A DNA stretch of 64,000 nucleotides, taken from the NCBI GenBank assembly GCA_026026165.1, contig JAPEUD010000001.1:124001-188000 (forward strand), in the 5' to 3' direction. The position numbers and the translations under genes are program-made. Source of the DNA: Sarea resinae (Eukaryota). Under the pieces are notes generated by a model. The model was not told the DNA's origin and made no database searches. It was given only the letters and a program-made list of their open reading frames with translations. This document shows positions 36,103 through 50,209 of this stretch, piece after piece (the first letter of the stretch is position 1; every line of letters starts with the position of its first letter).

Positions 36103-38178
36103 CTAGCTTGTATAGCTATCCTTCGTAATGCCTATCTGGAGATTCGTGTGGAGGTACCTCCGAGGCGTGACCTTGGTCAGCCTGGGGTCCACACCCTCCA
36201 ACAAGTCCACGAGGCTGTTTGCCTTCATGGCGAACTTATCCCCTTTGGAAGAAGGGAAAAGAACTTCGGCATGACCGTCCTTGTTCAAGACTCGCACTTG
36301 AACGGACAGCTTTAGTGCAGGATCACCCGGAAGTGCTTCTGCTGCGAGTCTCTCTTCGGGCGGGGTGTCATCACGAAGAAGACACGTCGCCCAGACTTTG
36401 TCGGCCGCAGTGAGACCGAGACGCTTCACGTCTGCGCTGCGGATGCTAACGTCCAGCTTGTTCAGTGAGAACATGAGACGGAATAGCCCGGCCTTACACA
36501 GCTTGAATTCCCCCCCATTAAGGAATTTGTGTTTTGCCGTCTTTCGCTTCGACTCGTGCGACTTCTGCATCGCATTTCGCCTCTTCCCGATGTAGTATGC
36601 ATATACCACGGGATCCTCAGAGGCAGCCAAGAGATTGAATGATCTCTGCGCCGTGGCGTTACCCCCCTGAACGTATTGGATCAGAGGCGGCGCAATATTC
36701 AGGTGCGCGCCTGGGTAAGGTACTGCCGTATTTTCCGGCAGGTGCGGTTGCAGCAGAGACTCCGGGAGAGTCTGAAAAAGCAAACAACCCCACATCTCCA
36801 TCAGATTGAGAAACATCTGATAGCCCTGGATGCCCTTTGTCTTGGCCGGAGTTGCGGCAGGCAAGAATGGTTCGGGGTAGGTATCCTCATCATCCGAGGA
36901 TACCAGAATGGCATCATCTGGGCCGAATCCAGTAGCATTACTGCCACTGGCTGAACCCGGTTCTGCCAGCACCTCGCGAGAGTCCGAAGACTCAGGTTTA
37001 GCACTGATATCGTCCACGGCTCCCCGAAGGGAAACCGGTGGGTTTTCCAAGGGTCCCCAAAGGGGGACCGCTGGATCGTTCAAGGATCCCCGAAGGGAAT
37101 CCTCAAACGCCGAGTCGTCTTTCATGGCATTGCTGCCTTTGGACGAGTCGGTGGCCGCATCACGGGAACCCGAAGATTCCCCTTCAGCAGTAGATTCATT
37201 CAAGGATCCCCGAAGGGAATCCTCAAACGCCGAGTCGTCTTTCATGGCATTGCTGCCTTTGGACGAGTCGGTGGCCGCATCACGGGAACCCGAAGATTCC
37301 CCTTCAGCACGGTCCGTATTTGAGAAGACGAAAGATTCGTCTCCTGTGAGGGTGCAAAGCATTGCGTATGTGCTTTGCTTACCCATTCGCTCATAAGCGA
37401 AGTAGTGGAGGCTACTCTTGTTGCGGCGGAATTCTGCATCCATATGGTTACCCATACGAGCAGCGATGTCCGAAGCCTGGCCAACGTAGAGGTAGTAGGC
37501 TCCGACTTTATCCTTGTTAGGGATAACGTCCATGTACACACCGGGACCAGTGTGCGTGAAGTCACCTCCAAGGGCCTGGAGGTCCTGGAGGTTGAGGTAT
37601 CGTCCGTCCAAGAACAAGTCGTTGACGGAGGGCGAGAGGGCGTTCAGCATACATCCGCGGACGTAGCTGGGGTCATTCTGTCTCAAGAATGATTCGTAGA
37701 CATCTGGGACGGAGCCCAGAAGGGAATCGAGACAGGTTTGGGGATCGACCGATCGAGCGGACGACGTATCGAACACGCCTGCTTGTGCAGGAGTCTCGGG
37801 TTGTTTCGCAGTCTGCTTCTTTGAGTCAGCCTGCTGGATCACCTCTACTTGTTTGCCTTTGGAGACACTCAATGTATTTGGGCTAAGTTCCGGTTTGCCT
37901 GAGGACGGAGCCTCTTCTTCTTCTTCTTCTTCGTCGGCGGCTTCGTCCGAGGACTCTGCCTTTGCTGCCGGTCGCCTGGTCCGCTTGCGCGGTGGCTGTT
38001 CATTGTCTTCGCTGTCCTCGGCGACGGTGGCTGGGCCAGAGGACATTACCGCTTTTGCCGGCTGCTTCCTAGTGGAAGGAGAATTAGCATCTTTTTTAAC
38101 GACCTTCTTTTTGGTCGGCTTGGCTGTGTTCGGGTTCCCCGAAAACATCTCCCAACCGGCACCAAGTCTGCCGCTCAT
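36103..38178 (-). CDS. 691-aa protein with a GIY-YIG-like endonuclease domain
   Basis: Intronless ORF; GVYMD-x11-YLYVGQASDIAARMGNH matches the GIY-YIG two-strand motif plus catalytic Arg; later LNLMEMW (Glu) and HLNIA (Asn); basic NLS-like PPRKRTRR at the N-terminus. Confidence 0.7.
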   Translation of the reverse strand: MSGRLGAGWEMFSGNPNTAKPTKKKVVKKDANSPSTRKQPAKAVMSSGPATVAEDSEDNEQPPRKRTRRPAAKAESSDEAADEEEEEEEAPSSGKPELSPNTLSVSKGKQVEVIQQADSKKQTAKQPETPAQAGVFDTSSARSVDPQTCLDSLLGSVPDVYESFLRQNDPSYVRGCMLNALSPSVNDLFLDGRYLNLQDLQALGGDFTHTGPGVYMDVIPNKDKVGAYYLYVGQASDIAARMGNHMDAEFRRNKSSLHYFAYERMGKQSTYAMLCTLTGDESFVFSNTDRAEGESSGSRDAATDSSKGSNAMKDDSAFEDSLRGSLNESTAEGESSGSRDAATDSSKGSNAMKDDSAFEDSLRGSLNDPAVPLWGPLENPPVSLRGAVDDISAKPESSDSREVLAEPGSASGSNATGFGPDDAILVSSDDEDTYPEPFLPAATPAKTKGIQGYQMFLNLMEMWGCLLFQTLPESLLQPHLPENTAVPYPGAHLNIAPPLIQYVQGGNATAQRSFNLLAASEDPVVYAYYIGKRRNAMQKSHESKRKTAKHKFLNGGEFKLCKAGLFRLMFSLNKLDVSIRSADVKRLGLTAADKVWATCLLRDDTPPEERLAAEALPGDPALKLSVQVRVLNKDGHAEVLFPSSKGDKFAMKANSLVDLLEGVDPRLTKVTPRRYLHTNLQIGITKDSYTS
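37079..37309. repeat. Identical 111-bp direct duplication (period 120 bp), in frame inside the GIY-YIG ORF
   Basis: 37079-37189 equals 37199-37309; gives the repeated peptide AEGESSGSRDAATDSSKGSNAMKDDSAFEDSLRGSLN. Confidence 0.97.
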
Positions 38179-39327
38179 CTTGGACGATGAGTTGGGGGGA
38201 TGTGCTTTGTAAAACGAAAAAACAATTCGATCGTCAACTGTTCGAAAAAAAAAGTTGGTGGTGGAGCTGTGATGAAGACAGATGACGAGAAGAAAAAGAA
38301 GAAGAGTCGAAAAGGTGGGCGGGAAATGGCATTATATAGATGTCTCTTCCTCCTCGGCGCCTTCCTGGCATGAGGCCCCTCCCCTGGTTGAAGATGGGAG
38401 ATCTTTCCAAAGGCACCTGCATCCATTGAACGAATCCATGTCCCACCGCGTACACTGTCTCTCCACGCCTGCCCGGAGTCCAATATTCCCCTAACGTAGG
38501 CAATGTTGGCCGGCTCAGATGTGCCTGCATCCCACCGTAAGAGCAACATCGTTCGACTCCAATGACTCGAATTGATGACGTGACAATGAAACAAATGACG
38601 ACAAGGCAAATCAAAGCTTGTAACGAAATGGAGACGCCTTCTCTTGATCCGTTTTTGATGCAACGGAAACTGGAGATAGGTCAAGAGCACCTGGCTTGTA
38701 GGAAGCACCGACTGCACTGGTTGACACTCTGAAATTTTCTCAGCCGGACTGAGCGATTGCGGCTACCTTATAGGAGGTAGCAATTCACAAGAAGGAGCAA
38801 TATCGTGTGAGGCACGCTGTTCTATGTTTAGTTGGCAAACAAGCAAAGAACGATAGTCGTTTGGCTCACATGGGAACTGCTTTGCCTCTTATCAGGACCT
38901 TACATATCGTCAACCTGTATTTCGCTCGGGTCAGGAGCAAAGCATGAGTGTCTATTCGTCCAGGCGATCACTCCTTCCTTTATACTAGAAGAATGTGGGC
39001 AATGAATCCACACGAAATGCAGACTCGGCGGTACACGCCCGGACGGGTGTCACGAACTGTTTTAGGATCAATGACTGCAGACTCGACATCTGATAACGGA
39101 TATAAGATCGAGCCAAGCCTGGCACGTGATCGGTGTCCCATCGCTGACTCGTTTTGATCTAGATGTTGAGAACTAGGTTGAATGCCATAGTCTGCCATAC
39201 CTTACATGATTGTCAAGACGCTGCGTAAGGAAAGAAGAACGTAAAGCCAGAGAGAAAGAGAGTCGAGAGTTGCGCCGAAACTAACAATAAGCAGCTGCAC
39301 AATTTTCATGTCGCACCCGGCCTTGAG

Positions 39328-39707
39328 AACAGCTGGTCTTATAAGCGACGTCACGCTCGCAAAGTCGACACTATCGAGTGATAAGAGATCTTCAACTGTG
39401 TCTGCCCTACTCTCCTGAATAGCATTTTGCAGCCCCTCTAATATCACACCACTAGCTGTTGTGTTTCAGTGCTGCCAACCGTCCAAACGGTCCAGTCCAA
39501 GGGTCTGGACTGGACCGACTCGCGTAGGTAAGCAGGGCGGTGTGAGGTACGTACCACCTACTTAGGTACTCCGTGGTTTGTTGCGCCAGAAAGTAAGGTA
39601 GTATCCATGGATGCTAGAATCAGAACCCCCACCCTCCTCCCCTTTTTACCCCTTTTTCGCTAAGATCCCGTCGGTCCGTACAATTATCCAGTCCACCCAC
39701 AACCTCT
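39328..39707. repeat. Inverted copy of ~49950-50372 (truncated MITE plus its flank)
   Basis: Reverse-complement alignment is evident by eye; both copies give the peptide ILEGLQxAIQESRADTVxDLLxLDSVDFASVTSL on opposite strands. Confidence 0.9.
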
Positions 39708-39849
39708 GTAGAGATTGCTTCGTTCTGTTACAGCTGTGGCTGGAGCTGGCATGTCTGCTTCTGTCCCGGCGTTGTTGGGCGTCTGGTTGTCTTTGGATTC
39801 CAGCTTCGGCGTTGGAAGTTCATTAAATTGAATCTTTCTCGAGCCCGCC

Positions 39850-40085
39850 TTGAGACTCGAAGAATGTCCGTTTGCCCTTTGTGTTTGGCCTCTGCCGCTT
39901 TCTGTCTCTGCAGATCGTCGCTCATTTTCGTCTTCGTGTCCACTGGCCTGGAAATGGAATGAATTGTGGAAGCATTTTGCGCCTTGGCTAGGTTCTTTAG
40001 TCGCACATTCCGCGTGCTGGAGGTGCTGCGTGAATGGTTTTGCGACGCTGAGAAACTCATCCTCGACCGTCACCAGCTGGAGTCC
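39850..40085 (-). pseudogene. Frameshifted fragment of a conserved fungal hypothetical protein
   Basis: VEDEFLSVAKPFTQHLQHAE / VRLKNLAKAQNASTIHSISRPVD across two frames; resembles a conserved Pezizomycotina protein (from memory). No start codon or flanking exons. Confidence 0.55.
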
Positions 40086-40134
40086 CGTTGACGAAAATCT
40101 GAACCCAAAAAGGAAGCGCCCCCTAAGGGAATCA

Positions 40135-42830
40135 TTTCGTTCGGCTGCATATTGTAGCCATCACCAGAAGGGAAGGGGGGATGTGTGCGGCGTGAGGAAG
40201 AGAGGGGGGCTTCCGTTGCCAGCTGCCCTCCTGGCAACGTCCTCCGTGCCACTTGTGACAATTTTCACACTTAACACGATGCCAGAATCCCCCAAAAGTT
40301 CTTCATCTCGTCGTCGTCATCGTCACAGACGTTGCAGTCCTAGCCAAGGTCTCGTGGAGAGACAGTTGGAGATGGGAGAGGCAGCTTGTGAACTCGTCGA
40401 TTGCCAGCACTTCCCCCGCATGCCATTCCTTGCAAATCTCGCACTTCACACGCTTCTGTAGTAAGTGTTAGCAAGCGTCCATCTAGAGCTAAAGCCAAAG
40501 TTCTGTCCCAGGGTCATTGAGACAAGGATGATGCCCAAGGCTTGCAATCAGGAAAGCTGACAGCGAGGAATTCAGGCTAGTGTGCATTCTATTACTTACA
40601 TTTGTGAAATTGTACGTTTTTGTCGTGACTGACGTTGCGGTTGCCAGTAATGAAGGGCGCAGGTGAGGGTTATGAGATAACGCTTGGTTTGCCGGCGGCC
40701 CCGGCAACTTCCCGCATGCCACTTGTGACAGTTTTCACACTTAACCCGATGCCGGAATCCACCAAAAGTTTTTCCATCTCGTCGTGGCGGTGGTGAGTAC
40801 AGAACAGGAGTCTTTATCTAACCTTCCATGGTACCGTCTTTTGCCGGAGATCCCCTCGGAGTCTTCTCAGGCTTCTCTCTAATACTGCACCCAGTGTCTT
40901 TCTCGCCGGACTCACTGGAGTCCCTTTGTTGTCGGACTCTCCCGAGTTGGTTTTGTTTTCAGCCGATGCCGGTTCTTTGCCTGCTGCCCTCTTATTGGTT
41001 TTCTTCCCAACCTCGACTGGCTGCGCCTCGTCATTGCTAGTACCTTCCCCGTCCGCCTCCTCTTCCCTCTCGGGCTCTCTCTTTTCCTTTCCCCTTCTTC
41101 TTGTTCTTTTAGAGCCAGCCATCAGGAAACATGATGACAAGGAATTCAGACTAGAGTGAATTCTACTATTCACATCCCCAAAGACGTAGGTTGTAGCCGA
41201 TGTGGCTCTTGCGAGCAAGGACGGAGGGATTTGGCCGGCTGCCGTTGCCGGTTGTAGTCTCCTGCACTCGCCTTTCCCGTGCCATTTGTGACACCTCCCA
41301 CATTTGCTACGTTCCTGTATTAAGTGTTAGCAAGCGTTCATCTAAAGCTAAAGCGAAAGGACCGTCAGACGGTCATTAAGAAATATCGTTCGATGCCCGG
41401 GGCTTGCAATAAGGAAAGCTGACAACGAACGATTCAGGCTAAATGCTATTACTCACAATTTCTAAATGATATGTGCTGGTAGTGGTCATGGTCGCAACGG
41501 ACGTTGCGGCCGCCATGAGGGAGGTGGAGAAGTGTGGGTGGTTGGAGAGCGCTCGGTTTGCGGGCGCCGGGGAGGGGGAGGAAGACGCCGGCAACATCCT
41601 CCATGCCACTTGTGGCAGTTTTCAGATGCCGGAATCCCCCAAAAGTTCTTCATCTCTACACTGCCACCATCGCGGAGGACTCTTTCCCCATGGCCTTGAG
41701 CTCTTGATCACGAGCATCGTCGCTGGAATCCCAATGACTATAGCCGCTATGGCCTCGATCATGGCTGCCATGCCCTTCAGCTTTTGATCACGAGCATCGT
41801 TGCTGGAATCCCCCAACAGTTTCTAGTCTCTATACGGCCACCACCGCCAAGGACTTTTGCCGCGCTGCTGGAATCCCTGTCGCTAATCCGAACCCGAAAA
41901 GGTAGTAAACAGAAAGCACTGTGATAGAGGTCAGTGCAATTATCGACTGAGCCGGCAGTCCATGGAGCCAGCAATCTTGAGAGCCGATAACAAGGGATCC
42001 CAAGCTAGAGTGAAATCTACTACTCACATTCTTGAAGACATGGGGCTAGTGGTAGTTTTAGTTGTGACCGAAGTTGGCCTGGCCGCGAAGTGGTGCTGGA
42101 GAGCGAGGTGAGCTCTGGGGGGAGGTGTGTCCGGTGGTGGGGAAGAGCAAGCATGGCTTGTGCTGTGTGTGGGAGTGCGGCGAAGAGACATGGGAGGGTG
42201 TTGCGTTGAAGAGAGTGAGAAAGGGCTGAGGTGGTCGTGCCTCACGACTTCGAAGACGTCGCGCGGAGAGATAGGTTCGCGGCAGTTGAAGCAGCGAGGG
42301 GCGGCGTCTGGATGTTTTTTCTGCTGATGTTCGATATACTCCAACAGACATTTCTTGCAAGCGCTATGCCAACATCCTGTGACGGTCTGCTCGATCATGG
42401 GCTCTTCGGCACATATGGAGATCGTTGGAGCCGGGTTATAGTAGTCTTTTTGGATGGCTCACGTAGGAACAGGTTTGCCTATTTACTGGTCCTTACATCT
42501 ATTGCTAGCCTAAAATTCTTGGTCAGTCTTCAATCTATGATAATTGCAGAACGGTATGCCAGACAAAACACAATGAATTACACGAACGAGTTTTCAGGCT
42601 GGAGTGGATTCTATTACTCACAATTTGAAAGGAGTATGTGCTGGTGATAGTCGTGAGTGAGGTGCGGGCACTGTGAGTGGTGGTGGTGGTGGTGGTGAAT
42701 GGAGAGATCAGAGTGGTGGTGAAGGAAGTGGAGGTGGGAGAGAATGGGACACGGCTTGCGTTCCCGGTCCCCCACGGCATCTGCCCTCATCGTTCCATTT
42801 GCGGCAGCCCTTCTATCTGGACGGAGTCAA
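40135..42830 (-). pseudogene. Array of about 7 degenerate copies of the zinc-knuckle exon and its introns (paralogues of the gene at 45016-46390)
   Basis: Minus-strand KCENCHKWHGGRC (~40270), KCEICKEWHAG (~40445), KCENCHKWHAGSC (~40740), KCGRCHKWHGKGEC (41314-41174), ENCHKWHGGC (~41620), GCRKWNDEGRC (~42810). Most are followed by SLLA-ATS-T-rich tails, and several by a GTRAGT-AATAGAAT donor. Confidence 0.8.
42234..42416 (-). pseudogene. RAD5: Captured RAD5 RING-finger fragment
   Basis: ICAEEPMIEQTVTGCWHSACKKCLLEYIEHQ..PRCFNCREPISPRDVFEVVRHD matches the recalled filamentous-fungal Rad5 C3HC4 RING. The first Cys and both helicase halves are absent. Confidence 0.75.
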
Positions 42831-43538
42831 CAGACGACATTTTCATGCTTGGGGAAGCTGAACCTTCCGAATCGAGAAAATCTCACCTGACCGAGACCTG
42901 TTACGGGACTCTGGCGGGATAAATCCGTGATGAGAAAAGAATTTTGCACCTTCGCGGATGATGTGATTGTCAAAATCCCGCTGGGCTAAACCTCGGAATT
43001 TGAGAAGTAAGTTGGACTTGTTACCATATATGATAAACAAGAGGTTGCGTGAGGAAAAGAAGAAGCAAGAAAAAGGTTCGTTCTAGTAGATATTTATATC
43101 CACATGACCTCGCTAGAAGATCACGCACCAGGAAGTCATAGAACCTATGAGTAGCACATGCTTCAATGCAAAGCGAATCTGTTGCCGTAGCAAGAAGGTA
43201 TCAAGTGCTTACCACGGGGAAACAGCGAAGTCGCTCAACACCGAGGGAGGGCTATTGCCACAACCGTATAGTCTATATGCCTATCGATGACTGCATTTCC
43301 ACCTATTGAGCCGTGAAAAAAGTAGACCTAACTTTGCAATGGTAAATGTCCTGTTGAGGTTAGCAAGTGGCCAATCTCCAGGAGACCCCTCGAGTAGCTC
43401 TGTAAGCTCAATGTAATGTGTATACACATCCTGTAAAAAGATATCAAGAGGGAAGTTCTGGATGTCGCCACAACTGGCCAACAAAATTAAGCAGCAGAAA
43501 AACTAAATGAGGATGGCAAGAGAGATTGGCAAAAGAGA

Positions 43539-43657
43539 TAGTCATGCTGGGGATCGAACCCAGGCCTCTGTGATGCCCAATCACCGCAACCGTTCGGGGA
43601 ACTGTTGGGGGATTCCGGCAATTAAGGCACAGCGCTCTACCACTGAGCTACATGACC
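43539..43657 (-). tRNA. Intron-containing tRNA gene, apparent anticodon TTA (ochre-suppressor-like/undetermined), copy 1
   Basis: GGTCATG-TA-GCTC-AGTGGTA-GAGC-G-CTGTG-CC-TTA-A-[48-nt intron 43621-43574]-T-CACAG-AGGC-CTGGG-TTCGATC-CCCAG-CATGACT-A. All four stems pair, A and B boxes are intact, and a T-run follows. Confidence 0.8.
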
Positions 43658-43748
43658 GAGTTGATATACACATCTCTCGACAGACAGAATTATGAGCATT
43701 CTCCGTGAGGGCTGGGTGCAAAATATCAATGAAAATGGCAAAAAGTAA

Positions 43749-43867
43749 TAGTCATGCTGGGGATCGAACCCAGGCCTCTGTGATGCCCAATCACCGCAAC
43801 CGTTCGGGGAACTGTTGGGGGATTCCGGCAATTAAGGCACAGCGCTCTACCACTGAGCTACACGACC
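43749..43867 (-). tRNA. Intron-containing tRNA gene, apparent anticodon TTA, copy 2 (210-bp tandem duplication)
   Basis: Identical to copy 1, intron included, except A5 to G (gives a G-U pair). The flanks are more diverged than the gene. TTTTT terminator downstream. Confidence 0.8.
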
Positions 43868-44613: not shown

Positions 44614-44790
44614 ACGCAGACGAATCAGATTGCGCCAGTCGCAGGTCTTTTGTATATGGTCAGAGTAGAGAGGAAGGGAAGGATCGGATGAAGATGTATG
44701 GTTGACCCGTTCAAGTCAGTCGTTTCTAACACCGCCGAACGTTTCCGGGTCAGTACATTGAGCATTGAAAACAGGCGCAATTGTGACGGC
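44614..44790. repeat. Imperfect inverted repeat, partner at ~47215-47398 (plus a partial extra copy at ~47060-47155)
   Basis: gcaggtcttttgtatatggtcagag...tttccgggtcagtacattgagcattgaaaacaggcgc aligns with the reverse complement gcaggccttccgtatatagtcagag...tttcgggtcagtccgttgagcgttgaaagcaagcgc. Confidence 0.75.
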
Positions 44791-45015
44791 CTACATGACA
44801 ACACGGGACGATATCTTCAGATACTGAATAACACGTTTCAATTAACCCGATTGGCTGACTCAGCATTCAAGCTGTCCGAGTGGCCGTTCGGCAAGCGATT
44901 TGATTAGGTAAAGAACGCGTGTCTACAATTTGACTAGTCACTCTGATATAGGGCTGAATATTGAGAGGATAGAAATCAAGAATTCATCATGCCTATGGTA
45001 TCAATAACAGGTTGA

Positions 45016-46390
45016 CTAATCCTCCATCGCGATGTCCTTTGCCGGGGAAACGCCCCTCTCGGCCCCCTTCTCGGAGGCTTTGCCGTCCTCGCCGGCATTG
45101 CCGGTGTTCCCATTCTTCTCTCGGAGTACCACTTCTTTGCCGGTCACCCCCATTTTCTCTACTGCCTTCTGGGCAGACTTCCCTCCTTCATTGGCCGGAG
45201 TCCTTTTCTTATTGGACTTCCCCGCCCCACTGCCTGACGTCCTTTTCTTGCCGGGGACGCCCCTTTCAATAGCTGGAGTCGTTTTCTTGCCGGACCCCAA
45301 CGGAATTGCCACTTTTTCGGCCGATGAGGCCTCCTTACCGGCGTCCCCCTCCTGACCCTCCTTCTCAATCTCTGCCTCGTCGTTGCCGGAACCCCCCTCC
45401 GCGTCATCTTCCCCTTCAGTTTCGCGCTCTTTCTTTCCCCCCCCCCTCTTGCCGGCTCCCCCCTTTTTGCCGGCTCCCCCCTTTTTGCCGGCTCCCCCAC
45501 TTTTCTGGTAAGGGTGGAACCTGTTGCCGGGCTACATTTATCTGTCAGTCTTCATTTCTAAGCAAAGCTGAACGGCCTTCCAAAAAAAGATGGAAAATCA
45601 ATGAAGAACGGCCGAGAAAACAGAGCGACGTGGGAGAGGTCACAATCAATTGAGCCGGTAGTGCATAGAGCCAGCAATAGGGAAAGCTGAACGGCATGCC
45701 AAAAAAAAGATGGAAAATCAATGAAGAACGAGCGAGAAAACAGAGCAACGTGGTAGAGGCAATGATCAACCGAGCCGGCAGTGCCAAGAGCCAGCAATCG
45801 GGAAAGCTGAACGGCGTGCCAAAAAAAAAACAAGATGGAAAATCCATGAAGAACGAGCGAAAAACAGAGCAACGTGGTAGAGGCAATGATCAACTGAGCC
45901 GGCAGTACATAGAGCCAGCAATCGGGAAAGCTGAACGGCATGCCAAACAAGAACGAAAAGCCAATGTAGAACGAGCGAGGAACAGAGAGCAATGTGGTGG
46001 AGGCAATCATCAACCCAGCCGGCAGTCCACGGGGCCAGCAATCAGGAAAGCTGACAACGAGGAATTCAGACTAGTAATTCTATTACTCACATTGGAGAAA
46101 GTGTAGTGTATGGCGGACGTTGCTCTGGCCATGAGAGAGGCAGGGATGCTTCCGGCGTGAGCGGCTCCCGTTGCCGGTGGTCCCCCACACTCGCCCTTGC
46201 CGTGCCAACGGTGGCATCGTCCACATTTGGCACGTCTCTAATAGTAAGTATCAGCAAGCGATCATCTAGAGCTAAAGCCGAAGGAATGGTTCGGGGTCGT
46301 TGAGATGTAAGACAACTTGTAACGGCAACGAGTGATGGCTTTGGAAAGCCAGGCCTTGGGTCATGAATCACTTACCTTTTGTCTTGGCAT
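45016..46390 (-). CDS. Intact 3-exon, 225-aa CCHC zinc-knuckle protein with PY-NLS and a Lys/Gly/Glu-rich tail
   Basis: Exons 46390-46376 (MPRQK), 46237-46091 (RRAKCGRCHRWHGKGEC...HYTFSN) and 45531-45016 (PGNRFHPYQKSGGAGKK...SPAKDIAMED*). All junctions phase 0; donors GTAAGT/GTGAGT; branch sites GCTGAT/ACTGAC; TAG acceptors. A further intron at 46462-46391 ends directly before the ATG. Confidence 0.75.
45565..46052. repeat. About 4 tandem copies of a ~120-bp unit inside intron 2 of the zinc-knuckle gene
   Basis: aagctgaacggc...gagccggcagt...gagccagcaatcggga recurs at ~45565, 45684, 45805 and 45928. Confidence 0.93.
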
Positions 46391-46466: not shown

Positions 46467-46635
46467 GATGATGATGATGACGGTGATGATGGTGGTGGTG
46501 ATGATGGTGGTGGTGATGATGGTGGTGGTGATGATGGTGGTGGTGATGATGGTGGTGGTGATGATGGTGGTGGTGATGATGGTGGTGGTGATGATGGTGG
46601 TGGTGATGATGGTGATGGTGATGGTGGTGATGGTG
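46467..46635. repeat. (GGTGGTGGTGATGAT)n minisatellite in the presumed 5' leader of the zinc-knuckle gene
   Basis: Seen directly; 15-bp period. Confidence 0.95.
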
Positions 46636-47800
46636 TGTACGAAAGAGGTTGAAAGGAAAAGAAGGAAAACAAACGGACGACGCAGTATTTAAGGTGGCCT
46701 CACAAGCCTCGGTCCTACCAGTTCAGATGTCTTACGTTCCTCTCCCTCATGGCTGACTTCCTACAGTATATTGGAAGCGCTTGTCCTCCACATCGCCCCG
46801 TACCTGCCTCCTATATTGCGTCCGAACCTGAAATGGGCAGAGGAGCATACATATCTTACCATTCTCGAAGGAGCCACCTAGGGGTCTAGATCGTTACATA
46901 CGAGGAGATCGAGTACCCCCGTCCATCTGCTCATAGACCTACCTGCCTCCTGTTCGTCTTCCTGCCTTGAGCTTCTTCCTTACTTGCCCCTGTTTGTCTT
47001 CCTACTATAAGCTCCTTCTTACATACCGCCTCTCCCTTCTAGACTCGACACCGACGTCGTCATATTGACCGTCAACGCGCCTGCTTGCAATGCTCAACCT
47101 ACTGACCCGAATACGCTCAAGCTGTCAGAAGACACTGACTTCGAGCATGAGTCGTTATAGAGCCTCCTCTTGTATCCTCTCCCCCCCCCCTCCCTCCCCT
47201 CCCTCCCCGTACCATCATATAGACCGTCAATGCGCTTGCTTTCAACGCTCAACGGACTGACCCGAAAGCGCTTGAAGGTGTCAGGATAGCCTGATTTCAA
47301 TGAGTCAATCACACACACACCTCCCCCCTCTGACTATATACGGAAGGCCTGCTTACAGGCGCCTGCGTTTTATACTCCGTTTATTGCCGACAGCGTGTTG
47401 ATTCATCAATACCTACCCTTCGATATTCAGCCCGACGCCTCAAGGAATTCAGTATATCAGGACTACTCTAGTAGAATTCTAGACAGGCGTTCTATTGCTA
47501 CATTGCTTGCTAGATTGTTTCTAGCTAAGTTGGTTGCTAAGTCTGTCGTTCGAGTAAGCGGCGTAGGAGCCTGTTAGGACGCTGTCCAGTATACTACCAT
47601 CGAGCTATGAAAACATGCGCCTACTGCGTACAATTTGATCAGATAACGATTTGCGTACAACTCTTGTCGACAGAATACAAAAATACTGCCTCTGATAATC
47701 AAAATGATTTCTAATCACTAGGTGACTTAATTGGATGGGAAAAGTAAGAGAAAAAAATTAAGCGACAAAAAAATCGAAAAAAAGTTAAAAATAATAATTT

Positions 47801-47881
47801 CGATGTTGACAAGATTCGAACTTGCGTGACCTAAGTCATATGATTTCTAGTCATACGCGATAACCACTCCGCCACAACATC
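47801..47881 (-). tRNA. tRNA-Ser(AGA)
   Basis: GATGTTG-TG-GCG-GAGTGGTTAT-CGC-G-TATGA-CT-AGA-AA-TCATA-TGACTTAGGTCA-C-GCAAG-TTCGAAT-CTTGT-CAACATC-G; long variable arm, G73, downstream T-runs. Confidence 0.9.
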
Positions 47882-48776
47882 TAGTGTTTTCTTGTTGAAG
47901 AATAGTTGTTTGACACAATCTATATACCTAAAGAACATGTCTTTCGATAGATAGCCTCCTGGTGAACTGGTAACGCTGCACAGCTTTGAGCCCTGGGTAA
48001 AAATGTCGCTTAGCGATCTCGCTTTGAGATCCATGTTTACATGTTATCGGCCAGATAAGCTACCGCAGTACTCCGAGTAGAGTACTGCCAAATACCTCAG
48101 CTTGAGCTTACAATTTGTCGGGATAAGCCAATCCAGCATGATCATGTGACTATGCCGAGTTCGGCAGTCGGTGTAAACGGAGAATTCAACCTCTCAATGG
48201 CTACATTGGGGGGGGGGAAGATAAATATCTCCTATTATTTAGGCCGTTCTCGATGGATTAAGGCTTCAACTGTTCTGTCTCTATGTAGGTAGCTTTACAA
48301 ACACACTCCCTTTCAGCCGTCTAGTAGGGTATCTAGAATCAATAGCGATATAGCCTGTAGCCGAATATCCCAACACAATTCACCCTTATAATTACCAAGT
48401 GCCCCGCATTTCAAATTTTCCGCAATTTACTTCGCCTCCTGACAGCGCCATAGAATCACATTCACCAGCGTGTATGCCTAACACAAGCAATTGATAGAAT
48501 TGGTTTCGTCTACTACATGGCTGCCCGATGGCTTTCTGCATTTTGCAATGATTACGACGTGGCTCTGATATCATGTTCGGCTCTCGGTGCCTTGAGGATC
48601 GAGCAACTAGCTATTGAGCAATCTCGTTCTGTCGGTTCCGAGGTCCTTCAAGTCTTGGAGGCTTGCTGACCTCAGGGTCTCGTCAACCCGCATTCGCTCT
48701 CATTAGCCCCGTTCTAGCGCGCATAATCCTGCTCTTCAACTGTCCACACTATCCGACGCAGAAAATTCCAAAAATT

Positions 48777-48857
48777 CGACAACTGAAGGACTCGAACCTT
48801 CGACCCAAAAGGGATATGATTTCTAGTCATACGCAATGACCACTCTGCCAAATTGTC
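48777..48857 (-). tRNA. tRNA-Ser(AGA), divergent second copy
   Basis: GACAATT-TG-GCA-GAGTGGTCAT-TGC-G-TATGA-CT-AGA-AA-TCATA-TCCCTTTTGGGT-C-GAAGG-TTCGAGT-CCTTC-AGTTGTC-G. Confidence 0.88.
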
Positions 48858-49269
48858 AAATCAATGGTTGATTGATGAGTTAGAGCCTGATAGATATCAT
48901 ATATATCCCCACGCGGCAGGGGAAAGTCCCCTGAAGATTAGAGCACGATTTGCGAATTATTCATGCTTCGCAGGGCTCTGAAACTCTAGATCTGGACGGT
49001 TGAGAGCACCGAAGGAGGAGACATCTTCTTATCGGCATGACTGTCAACACTATTGAGGAAATCACCGCGTTCTCCTCTATCTCTTACAGTTGCTTTCACC
49101 TTCAGCGCGCCCGGGGTAAGTTGAACGTGTTTACCTTGCATTCAATGACCACTTCAATTCAAATTGACGTTCACTGACCCCTTGGATTCAGTCCATTTGA
49201 TACTTAAGCGTGAATTGATGAAGCCGATTCACATTCACCTTGGGCGTGTGCTCTTTGTAGCGGGATCCA

Positions 49270-49903: not shown

Positions 49904-50209
49904 CAGTGCTGCTAACGGTCCATCGGTCTATCAGTCCATCGGTCCAGTCCAGAGGTTGTGTGTGGGTGGACCGGATAACTGCATGGACCAACGGGATTTT
50001 AGCGAAAAAGGGGTAAAAAGGGGAGGAGGGGCGAGGGCGGGGTGTAATCTACTCCGGAGTAACAACCCTGATTCTAGCATACGCTGTACTTCCTGGCGCA
50101 ACAAACTACGAGCACCTACCTTAGTAGGTGGTACGTACTGGACACGTACCTCACACCGCCCTGCTTTTCTACGCGAGTCGGTCTAAACGGTCCAAGGTTG
50201 CCAGCACTG
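49904..50209. mobile_element. ~306-bp non-autonomous TIR element (hAT-like MITE)
   Basis: Termini CAGTGCTGCTAACG ... GGTTGCCAGCACTG (reverse complement CAGTGCTGGCAACC); many subterminal GGTCC/GGACC repeats; second truncated copy starts at 39467 (CAGTGCTGCCAACC). No clean target-site duplication. Confidence 0.65.

Follow-up and report, generated by a model that had tools for sequence, protein, structure and literature searches.

A tRNA intron complementary to an adjoining gene family: a candidate antisense silencer in a filamentous ascomycete

Two almost identical tRNA-like genes in a 64-kb stretch of fungal DNA (the window, by which we mean the whole stretch analysed) share a 48-nt intron whose 5' arm is antisense to members of the gene family beside them. 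The intron could be a built-in silencer of that family. The potential for base-pairing, antisense to the minus-strand frames of the family, is real at the sequence level, and a family unit was very probably copied at the DNA level, or duplicated in inverted orientation, into the intron. As to its role, we lean towards a non-decoding tRNA scaffold that would release an antisense hairpin, itself the product of a family repeat duplicated in inverted orientation and comparable to the free introns (fitRNAs) of yeast, while judging this explanation to be somewhat short of probable. The coordinates of the relevant features are collected in Table 1.

Table 1. The tRNA-like genes, their introns and the complementary sites, in window coordinates.
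Feature	Position	Strand	Remarks
tRNA-like gene, copy 1	43539..43657	-	71-nt body and 48-nt intron; Rfam RF00005, 55.2 bits, model 1-71; T4 run directly downstream
tRNA-like gene, copy 2	43749..43867	-	Rfam RF00005, 52.6 bits; 118/119 identical to copy 1; T5 run downstream
Intron of copy 1	43574..43621	-	5' arm (nt 1-24) antisense to the family; 3' arm is its imperfect complement
Intron of copy 2	43784..43831	-	48/48 identical to the intron of copy 1
Array of decaying family copies	39990..42100	-	Order A3, B1, A2, B2, A1, plus a fragment at 41640-41900; from self-BLAST and reading frames
A1 site	40279..40301	+	19/22 counted from nt 1 and 20/22 over nt 2-23; codons TFGGFWH on the minus strand
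A2 site	40749..40771	+	19/22; minus-strand codons TFGGFRH
A3 site	41626..41648	+	20/22 from nt 1, 21/22 for nt 2-23; duplex -40.4 kcal/mol
Short core, 8-mer GGAATCCC	41725..41732	+	Decayed repeat
Best long site	41800..41821	+	21/22 to intron nt 1-22; in a degenerate repeat fragment, every minus frame of which has stops; duplex -37.8 kcal/mol
Short core, 8-mer GGAATCCC	41870..41877	+	Decayed repeat
Intact-looking family gene	45016..46390	-	Predicted model, from frame reading and GT..AG and branch signals
15-nt site	45383..45397	+	Tail exon, minus-strand codons E-G-G-S-G-N; 14 Watson-Crick pairs and one G-U with intron nt 1-15; -33.4 kcal/mol
18-bp tandem repeat, 3.6 copies	45440..45504	+	Each copy has a heptamer equal to intron nt 1-7, then a C run; -29.9 kcal/mol

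The tRNA-like genes and their intron

A search of the window with Rfam identified four tRNAs, all on the minus strand, of which two are ordinary and two contain an intron. Both intron-bearing genes form a cloverleaf over the whole RF00005 model (positions 1-71), with scores above the gathering score of 29. In the alignment 52 nt stand for four model positions (35-38), which places a 48-nt insert between positions 37 and 38. The initial annotation had described two minus-strand tRNAs with an identical intron and a non-sense anticodon, and both points are borne out: the Rfam inserts at 37/38 agree at all 48 positions, and the spliced anticodon loop reads C32 C33 U34 U35 A36 A37 U38, giving the ochre anticodon UUA together with a C in place of U33, a residue that is near-universal in tRNAs. 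No splice register that would give U33 was found when the alternatives were worked by hand, and the genes have neither U33 nor a sense anticodon, the two features expected of an elongator tRNA. The D and T arms fit, and the body is canonical apart from C33. Read from the sequence, the A-box and B-box regions fit the Pol III consensus, and no run of four T residues occurs inside the gene or the intron. ARAGORN proposed instead a tRNA-Gly(CCC) with a 26-nt intron at position 31; this model was rejected because its intron position is non-canonical and its arm implausible, and because the Rfam alignment backs an intron at 37/38.

The two copies are carried by a tandem duplication of ∼190 nt, 92.1% identical overall in self-BLAST. 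Within the tRNA and intron the sole change is A5 to G5 in copy 2, which still pairs with U68, whereas the rest of the duplicated unit has 14 differences in 71 flanking nucleotides. The wider flanks are identical at 52/77 and 18/27 positions and a 27-nt block directly upstream at 25/27; divergence begins within a few nucleotides of the mature 3' end. A transcribed unit identical at 118 of 119 positions between flanks of ∼80% identity is a sign that a working Pol III unit has been under selection or has been homogenised, and on this pattern we read the genes as something other than decaying pseudogenes. The combination of C33 and UUA in a conserved tRNA is odd and calls for explanation. RIP was considered as the cause of the odd loop or of the decay of the array and was rejected, because transitions and transversions are similar in number (26/17, 34/36 and 33/28) and because C-to-T mutation cannot yield C33 from T. 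For homogentisate dioxygenase, the one conserved gene checked, the standard code gives an uninterrupted frame that spans 91-98% of its homologues.

Two metagenome scans yielded no relative of the tRNA. The tRNA 5' half followed by the C-C-U-U-A-A loop gave 0 loci, and the 24-nt 5' half alone gave seven, of which ARAGORN assigned six to ordinary intron-less tRNA-Ile(GAT), tRNA-Thr(AGT) and tRNA-Val(CAC/GAC) and reported the seventh as an unassigned tRNA; the odd loop and the intron are absent from all seven.

Taken by itself, the intron forms a hairpin with a 3-nt loop and a stem of 18 pairs, all of them Watson-Crick and none G-U (-18.1 kcal/mol); 14 of 500 shuffled sequences fold as low (z = -2.1). 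Since every pair is Watson-Crick, the intron is a near-palindrome as DNA. Its 5' arm matches the family at 21 of 22 positions, and its 3' arm has drifted, with two small bulges and two mismatched positions. The 18-bp stem is shorter than usual Dicer substrates. A canonical tRNA intron lies between positions 37 and 38, has an unpaired 3' splice site and has a purine at -3 that pairs with a pyrimidine of the anticodon loop, and the present intron has all three properties. With the cloverleaf imposed as a folding constraint, the intron's 3' end pairs with C33-A37 and also with intron nt 1-6; the 3' splice site falls within a bulge of 3 nt, an arrangement seen in ordinary pre-tRNAs, and G(-3) has C33 as its partner, C32 being equally possible. 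A search of the tRNA-like genes against snoRNA families gave no match at E values up to 1, and no C/D boxes were seen by eye.

Antisense matches in the neighbouring family

When the 22-mer that begins at intron nt 1 is searched against the whole window with up to three mismatches, four plus-strand sites are found besides the two introns, at 41800 (one mismatch), 41626 (two), 40279 (three) and 40749 (three). The chance expectation is 0.01 matches per shuffle, and none of 100 shuffles reached the observed six. With blastn-short the matches take the register of intron nt 2-23, giving 21/22 at 41627-41648, 20/22 at 40280-40301 and 19/21 at 40750-40770; in this register the four plus-strand matches of the initial annotation, and their counts, are reproduced. 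Its shorter cores near 41722 and 41867 were recovered as 8-mers at 41725 and 41870, and the match does begin at the 5' splice site, as it had stated, this being one of ∼27 possible offsets. The match spans the whole intron 5' arm (nt 1 to ∼24) and stops at the splice junction; no extension into the tRNA exons on either side was found by self-BLAST, blastn-short or eye. Within the window the 22-mer is not a dispersed repeat, only the four array sites occurring besides the introns; the array bins also lie at neighbouring depth in one DNA sequencing run, a weak indication, depth not being copy number. In a duplex scan with intron nt 1-24 over 15,992 windows on both strands (mean -9.8, s.d. 4.3 kcal/mol), 12 of the 14 best non-self duplexes fall in the family, the intact gene included, and these 12 are all in the minus-strand sense (-40.4 to -26.6 kcal/mol).

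The four sites lie in tandem paralogues and so represent one independent event, not four; because these paralogues share one orientation, the antisense orientation is likewise a single 50:50 event. The sites show 1-3 differences in 22, as expected from neutral drift of the array, so that there is no sign of co-evolution.

The predicted model of the intact gene comprises a short exon 1, an exon with C-x2-C-H-x-W-H-x4-C and ...SLMARATS..., a long intron that contains a 120-bp tandem repeat, and a Gly/Lys/Glu-rich tail exon. In three copies the TFGGF(R/W)H codons, which had been placed ahead of the Cys/His motif, do precede C-x2-C-H-x-W-H. Substitution patterns support a coding behaviour of the minus-strand family frames: dN/dS is 0.20 between the intact gene and B1 (44 codons; differences by codon position 12/9/21) and 0.22 between A1 and A2 over site and motif (26 codons; 4/3/7), third positions are in excess, and the GT..AG introns lie in minus orientation. 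The earlier statement that the array is read from the minus strand therefore appears sound as regards coding sense. The copies differ in their state of decay. In A1 the frame runs uninterrupted past the Cys/His motif until a stop, in A2 that motif and the PSLLATATS motif are separated by a frameshift, A3 has lost the first Cys codon of the following motif through a 10-nt deletion, and B1 is frameshifted in the tail. The best-matching copies are thus either frameshifted (A2, A3) or a fragment with stops (41800), and the suggestion that the family is selfish or toxic is unsupported. The site-bearing segment occurs only in A-type copies; in B-type copies its place is the 3' end of a spliceosomal intron.

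The family had been described as carrying a zinc knuckle, a label that we do not retain. The Pfam knuckle model (zf-CCHC) matches none of eight family segments even at E values up to 10, and the family spacing is C-x2-C-x3-H-x3/4-C, as against C-x2-C-x4-H-x4-C in zf-CCHC knuckles. No convincing homologue of the family was found by word-indexed search, HMMER, Pfam or the ESM Atlas. The word-indexed search with a 170-aa family frame gave none at E values up to 0.01 among 154 candidates (93-298 aa), Pfam gave nothing meaningful and the Atlas no usable hit. HMMER with the 56-aa segment of site and motif against 1.84 billion representatives gave five hits at E values up to 0.001; P0003 and P0004 were rejected as unrelated repeat proteins, and the best stretches of P0001, P0002 and P0005 cover query residues 18-44 only, without the TFGGF part.

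The intact gene at 45016-46390 had been said to lack the site. This is wrong, as its tail exon holds the 15-nt site in frame and the gene has 11 heptamers equal to intron nt 1-7. The 15-nt site is 14/15 identical to intron nt 1-15, a score reached by 0 of 300 shuffles; past ∼18 nt, homology to the tail exon is marginal, 16/18 being a match that 4 of 300 shuffles also attain. The window's plus strand has 20 occurrences of the heptamer, and 14 fall in family regions, which make up 5.5% of the window; in the intact gene the heptamer encodes recurring x-Gly-Lys/Asn units. These repeats would give a guide many seed sites in the one live gene. The A-type copies read the site nucleotides as F-G-G-F-R-H and the tail exon reads them as E-G-G-S-G-N, in different frames. 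Since the 5' arm is the antisense of a native, often-repeated family unit, the family is the likely donor. Extended complementarity to reading frames, as described for fitRNAs, is present over 15 nt in the tail of the intact gene and at 19-20/22 in the predicted A1 and A2 frames.

A possible antisense role and its rivals

The sequence relations, the tRNA fold, the conservation pattern and the hairpin are observed, whereas transcription, splicing, a stable intron and any effect on its targets are inferred parts of the proposed mechanism. The tRNA splicing endonuclease would cut the pre-tRNA at 37/38, so that the RNA set free would start, with 5'-UU, where the match starts. Family transcripts read from the minus strand would pair with this intron, or with its first 22-24 nt, the candidate targets being the 15-nt site and 11 heptamer seeds of the intact gene and the 19-21/22 sites of the decayed copies. 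Pairing may then lower the family transcripts, in the manner of yeast fitRNAs or after loading of the short hairpin into Argonaute. A stricter version, in which both Pol III genes would have given up decoding (UUA, C33) and would exist to deliver, through tRNA splicing, a 48-nt hairpin with a 5'-U against the lineage-specific neighbour gene and its decaying paralogues, we regard as rather unlikely.

Several lines of evidence argue for an antisense role. The match is far beyond chance, the tRNA body and Pol III signals are canonical, and the genes are conserved though hardly able to decode; a scaffold role would explain at once the non-sense anticodon, C33 and an antisense intron placed next to what it would target. 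The match opens with 5'-UU at the splice site, the arms have drifted unequally, like a guide and a passenger strand, the duplex scan and the clustering of heptamers both single out the family, and the family frames behave as coding on the minus strand. There is also a published precedent, as the initial annotation had noted. In S. cerevisiae the free introns of tRNA-Ile(UAU) and those of tRNA-Trp(CCA) lower mRNAs with complementary reading-frame stretches, according to a preprint from the Hopper laboratory (10.1101/2025.11.19.689297).

The same structure could have arisen as a passenger, with complementarity that has no regulatory effect, and we hold this to be nearly as probable as a role in guiding. 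Repair or template switching would have copied a family unit into the anticodon-loop region of a tRNA, snap-back producing the palindrome, and the insert would survive because anything at 37/38 is spliced out. The tRNA genes would have been kept for another reason, as an attenuated ochre suppressor or in another tRNA-like role, or would have been homogenised by gene conversion. Stem pairs that are all Watson-Crick have the look of a DNA-level inverted repeat, not of a selected RNA fold, and the surrounding 6 kb is a patchwork of duplicated pieces (a RING-finger fragment, frameshifted copies and tandem repeats). The longest sites lie in dead copies, frameshifted or fragmentary, that need no silencing, and the intact gene offers only 15 nt; neutral drift fits the differences between sites, and the orientation is a single event. 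In the pre-tRNA fold the 3' arm of the intron is paired to the anticodon loop, which is also the case in ordinary pre-tRNAs, so the hairpin may be a splicing structure, and the stem is short for Dicer. Identity between the introns is a normal finding, identical copies being usual within yeast tRNA families without implying a guide role, according to the same preprint (10.1101/2025.11.19.689297), and one gene-conversion tract of ∼150 bp could yield the block of identity. This block, however, ends within a few nucleotides of the mature 3' end and includes the 27-nt upstream block, which fits a selected transcription unit better than a random tract. A passenger origin also needs two unrelated rarities in one gene, a conserved UUA/C33 tRNA and the capture of neighbouring sequence, and has to place the start of the match exactly at the splice site, one of the ∼27 offsets. 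A suppressor kept in this way would itself be unusual: for Podospora, 'no obvious suppressor tRNA' is reported in the genome article (PMC2441463), the only statement on suppressor tRNAs in Pezizomycotina that our literature search returned, which does not imply that others are absent from print.

Descent in the reverse direction, in which the 5' segment of the A-type copies came from the tRNA intron, or of both from a third, mobile sequence, is distinctly less likely. It would fit the restriction of the site-bearing segment to A-type copies, where it replaces the 3' end of the B-type spliceosomal intron, and the use of the same nucleotides in different frames in the tail exon and the A-type copies. 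Similarity nevertheless stops short of the tRNA exons on both sides, and the motif (a G run with the complement of intron nt 1-7) is native to the family tail and repeated there many times, so that the family is the likelier donor; nor is there a dispersed-repeat signal, the array bins being at neighbouring depth in the DNA run, where depth is not copy number. Still less probable, to the point of being remote, is a DNA or protein-binding motif shared in cis by the tRNA gene and the array without RNA-RNA pairing. Four sites do cluster within 250 bp at 41626-41880, and the core loosely resembles, by eye, the T-arm/B-box region of the tRNA itself, but the sites are without the 5' half of the B-box consensus, those of three copies lie in a frame that evolved as coding, and a cis-element needs neither a fixed strand relation nor a start at the splice site. 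Chance resemblance is refuted by the shuffles, with 0.01 matches expected and the observed count reached in none of 100.

A tRNA scaffold that releases an antisense intron would share elements with several known systems. With the yeast fitRNAs it would have in common a canonically placed intron, a Pol III tRNA gene, extended complementarity to mRNA frames and an expected action as a negative regulator; the yeast introns come from ordinary essential decoder tRNAs and have dispersed targets, whereas here the anticodon is ochre with C33, the intron is a near-palindrome, the candidate targets adjoin it and the action is proposed from sequence. Young plant MIR genes are modelled as hairpin RNA genes that arose when their targets were duplicated in inverted orientation, and microRNA-like hairpin loci of fungi are reportedly treated in an eLife re-analysis of 2022 (PMC9757828). 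As in such genes, both arms would come from the target, one staying near it (21/22) and the other drifting; unlike them, the stem here is 18 bp within 48 nt, release would be by tRNA splicing and not by Dicer or Drosha, and transcription would be by Pol III within a tRNA. Our literature search on Argonaute-bound small RNAs from tRNA introns in fungi found nothing specific among the articles listed, which does not imply absence from print.

The intron of archaeal pre-tRNA-Trp holds a box C/D guide RNA for 2'-O-methylation of its own tRNA and so likewise acts as an antisense guide within a tRNA, but no C/D family matches the present intron. In other tRNA-linked precursors (the tRNA-miRNA units of gammaherpesvirus 68, engineered tRNA scaffolds and tRNA intronic circular RNAs) the tRNA fold similarly provides a Pol III promoter and a processing handle for another small RNA; the virus places its hairpins downstream of the tRNA, the engineered scaffolds do not occur in nature, and the circular RNAs depend on a ligase pathway of the RtcB type. 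The UUA anticodon in an otherwise well-formed, intron-bearing tRNA is shared with ochre suppressor tRNAs, such as the tyrosine-inserting ones of yeast. The known suppressors keep U33, whereas here there is C33, in two conserved genomic copies, with no sign of TAA recoding in the homogentisate dioxygenase frame, the only one considered.

The function of excised tRNA introns has long been doubted, and to our knowledge free tRNA introns have so far been reported as regulators by one laboratory, in one yeast. Were the scaffold explanation true, it would take fitRNA-type systems beyond budding yeast for the first time, with a tRNA that serves, also for the first time, purely as a vehicle: a locally encoded silencer made from an inverted duplication of its own target, with a motif present up to 11 times in the neighbour's mRNA. 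A natural case of a host tRNA that can hardly decode, with a conserved intron and complementary genes 2 kb away, would make the free-intron idea directly testable, and would show how such a regulator can originate, by the inverted copying of a target motif into a cleanly excised position. If the intron is a passenger, it is still a rare documented source of eukaryotic tRNA intron sequence.

The surrounding window

The window contains genes for homogentisate dioxygenase, alpha-amylase and a cupin/JmjC protein, and its spliceosomal introns carry GTRAGT...CTRAC...AG signals; it is nuclear DNA of a filamentous ascomycete. The highest identities of the dioxygenase, 83-85%, are to proteins named from Lecanoromycetes, Xylona and Dothideomycetes, which indicates that a close relative is absent from the protein collection. 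The two ordinary tRNAs, at 47801-47881 and 48776-48858 (minus strand), are tRNA-Ser(AGA) genes without an intron, and their sharing of the strand makes the odd tRNAs part of a small tRNA cluster.

Contigs of a single DNA sequencing run, which probably derives from the source itself, match the window at 40177-42370, 42468-43454 and 43630-43776 with 0 differences, stretches of 22 nt being too short to place. Bins over the array have a depth of ∼343 and those over the two tRNA bodies ∼699, values that do not equal copy number. Within 40156-41972, contigs of low depth (15-20 against ∼343) rejoin array segments in another order, for example 40156 to 41627, 41103 to 41910, and 41972 back to 40157, and one such junction coincides with the start of the A3 site. 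These junctions could mean that a minority of molecules carry a structural variant of the array, or that the sample contains a second, related genome. A segment of ∼70 nt at 42428-42497, on the 5' border of the RING-finger fragment, stands out as very high-copy in this run: the bin 42366-42502 has a summed depth of 23025, compared with ∼343 nearby, and is flanked on either side by many loose ends that differ from one another. A short dispersed element is the probable explanation, or else a match to some abundant replicon.

The RING-finger fragment itself is an isolated C3HC4 exon at 42024-42458 on the minus strand (Pfam E values 4e-5 to 1e-4). Its end, the ...TSVTT... motif together with a GTGAGT intron, is shared with the family copies, so the family may derive from the tail of this gene. 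A run contig of 5616 nt matches 42160-42370 with 16 differences, indicating a paralogue elsewhere. The 120-bp tandem repeat in the modelled long intron of the intact gene (45564-46054, 4.1 copies, 84% matches) has units that resemble the intron downstream of the RING exon (41904-42030); open frames exist in both directions, among them one of 141 aa on the plus strand at 45681-46106. A 15-bp microsatellite (11.1 copies, 96% matches) lies immediately upstream of the intact gene, at 46469-46635, and reads as poly-His, poly-(SPPPS) or poly-(ITTT) according to frame.

Other duplicated segments occur further out. The entire tRNA and family region is bracketed by an inverted duplicate pair, 39513-39708 and 49950-50183, that is 73% identical, and 44695-44802 recurs inverted at 47056-47315, also at 73%. 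On the minus strand at 36103-38331 there is an open frame of 742 aa, without a Pfam match, in which the internal direct repeat SRDAATDSSKGSNAMKDDSAFEDSLRGSLN occurs twice.
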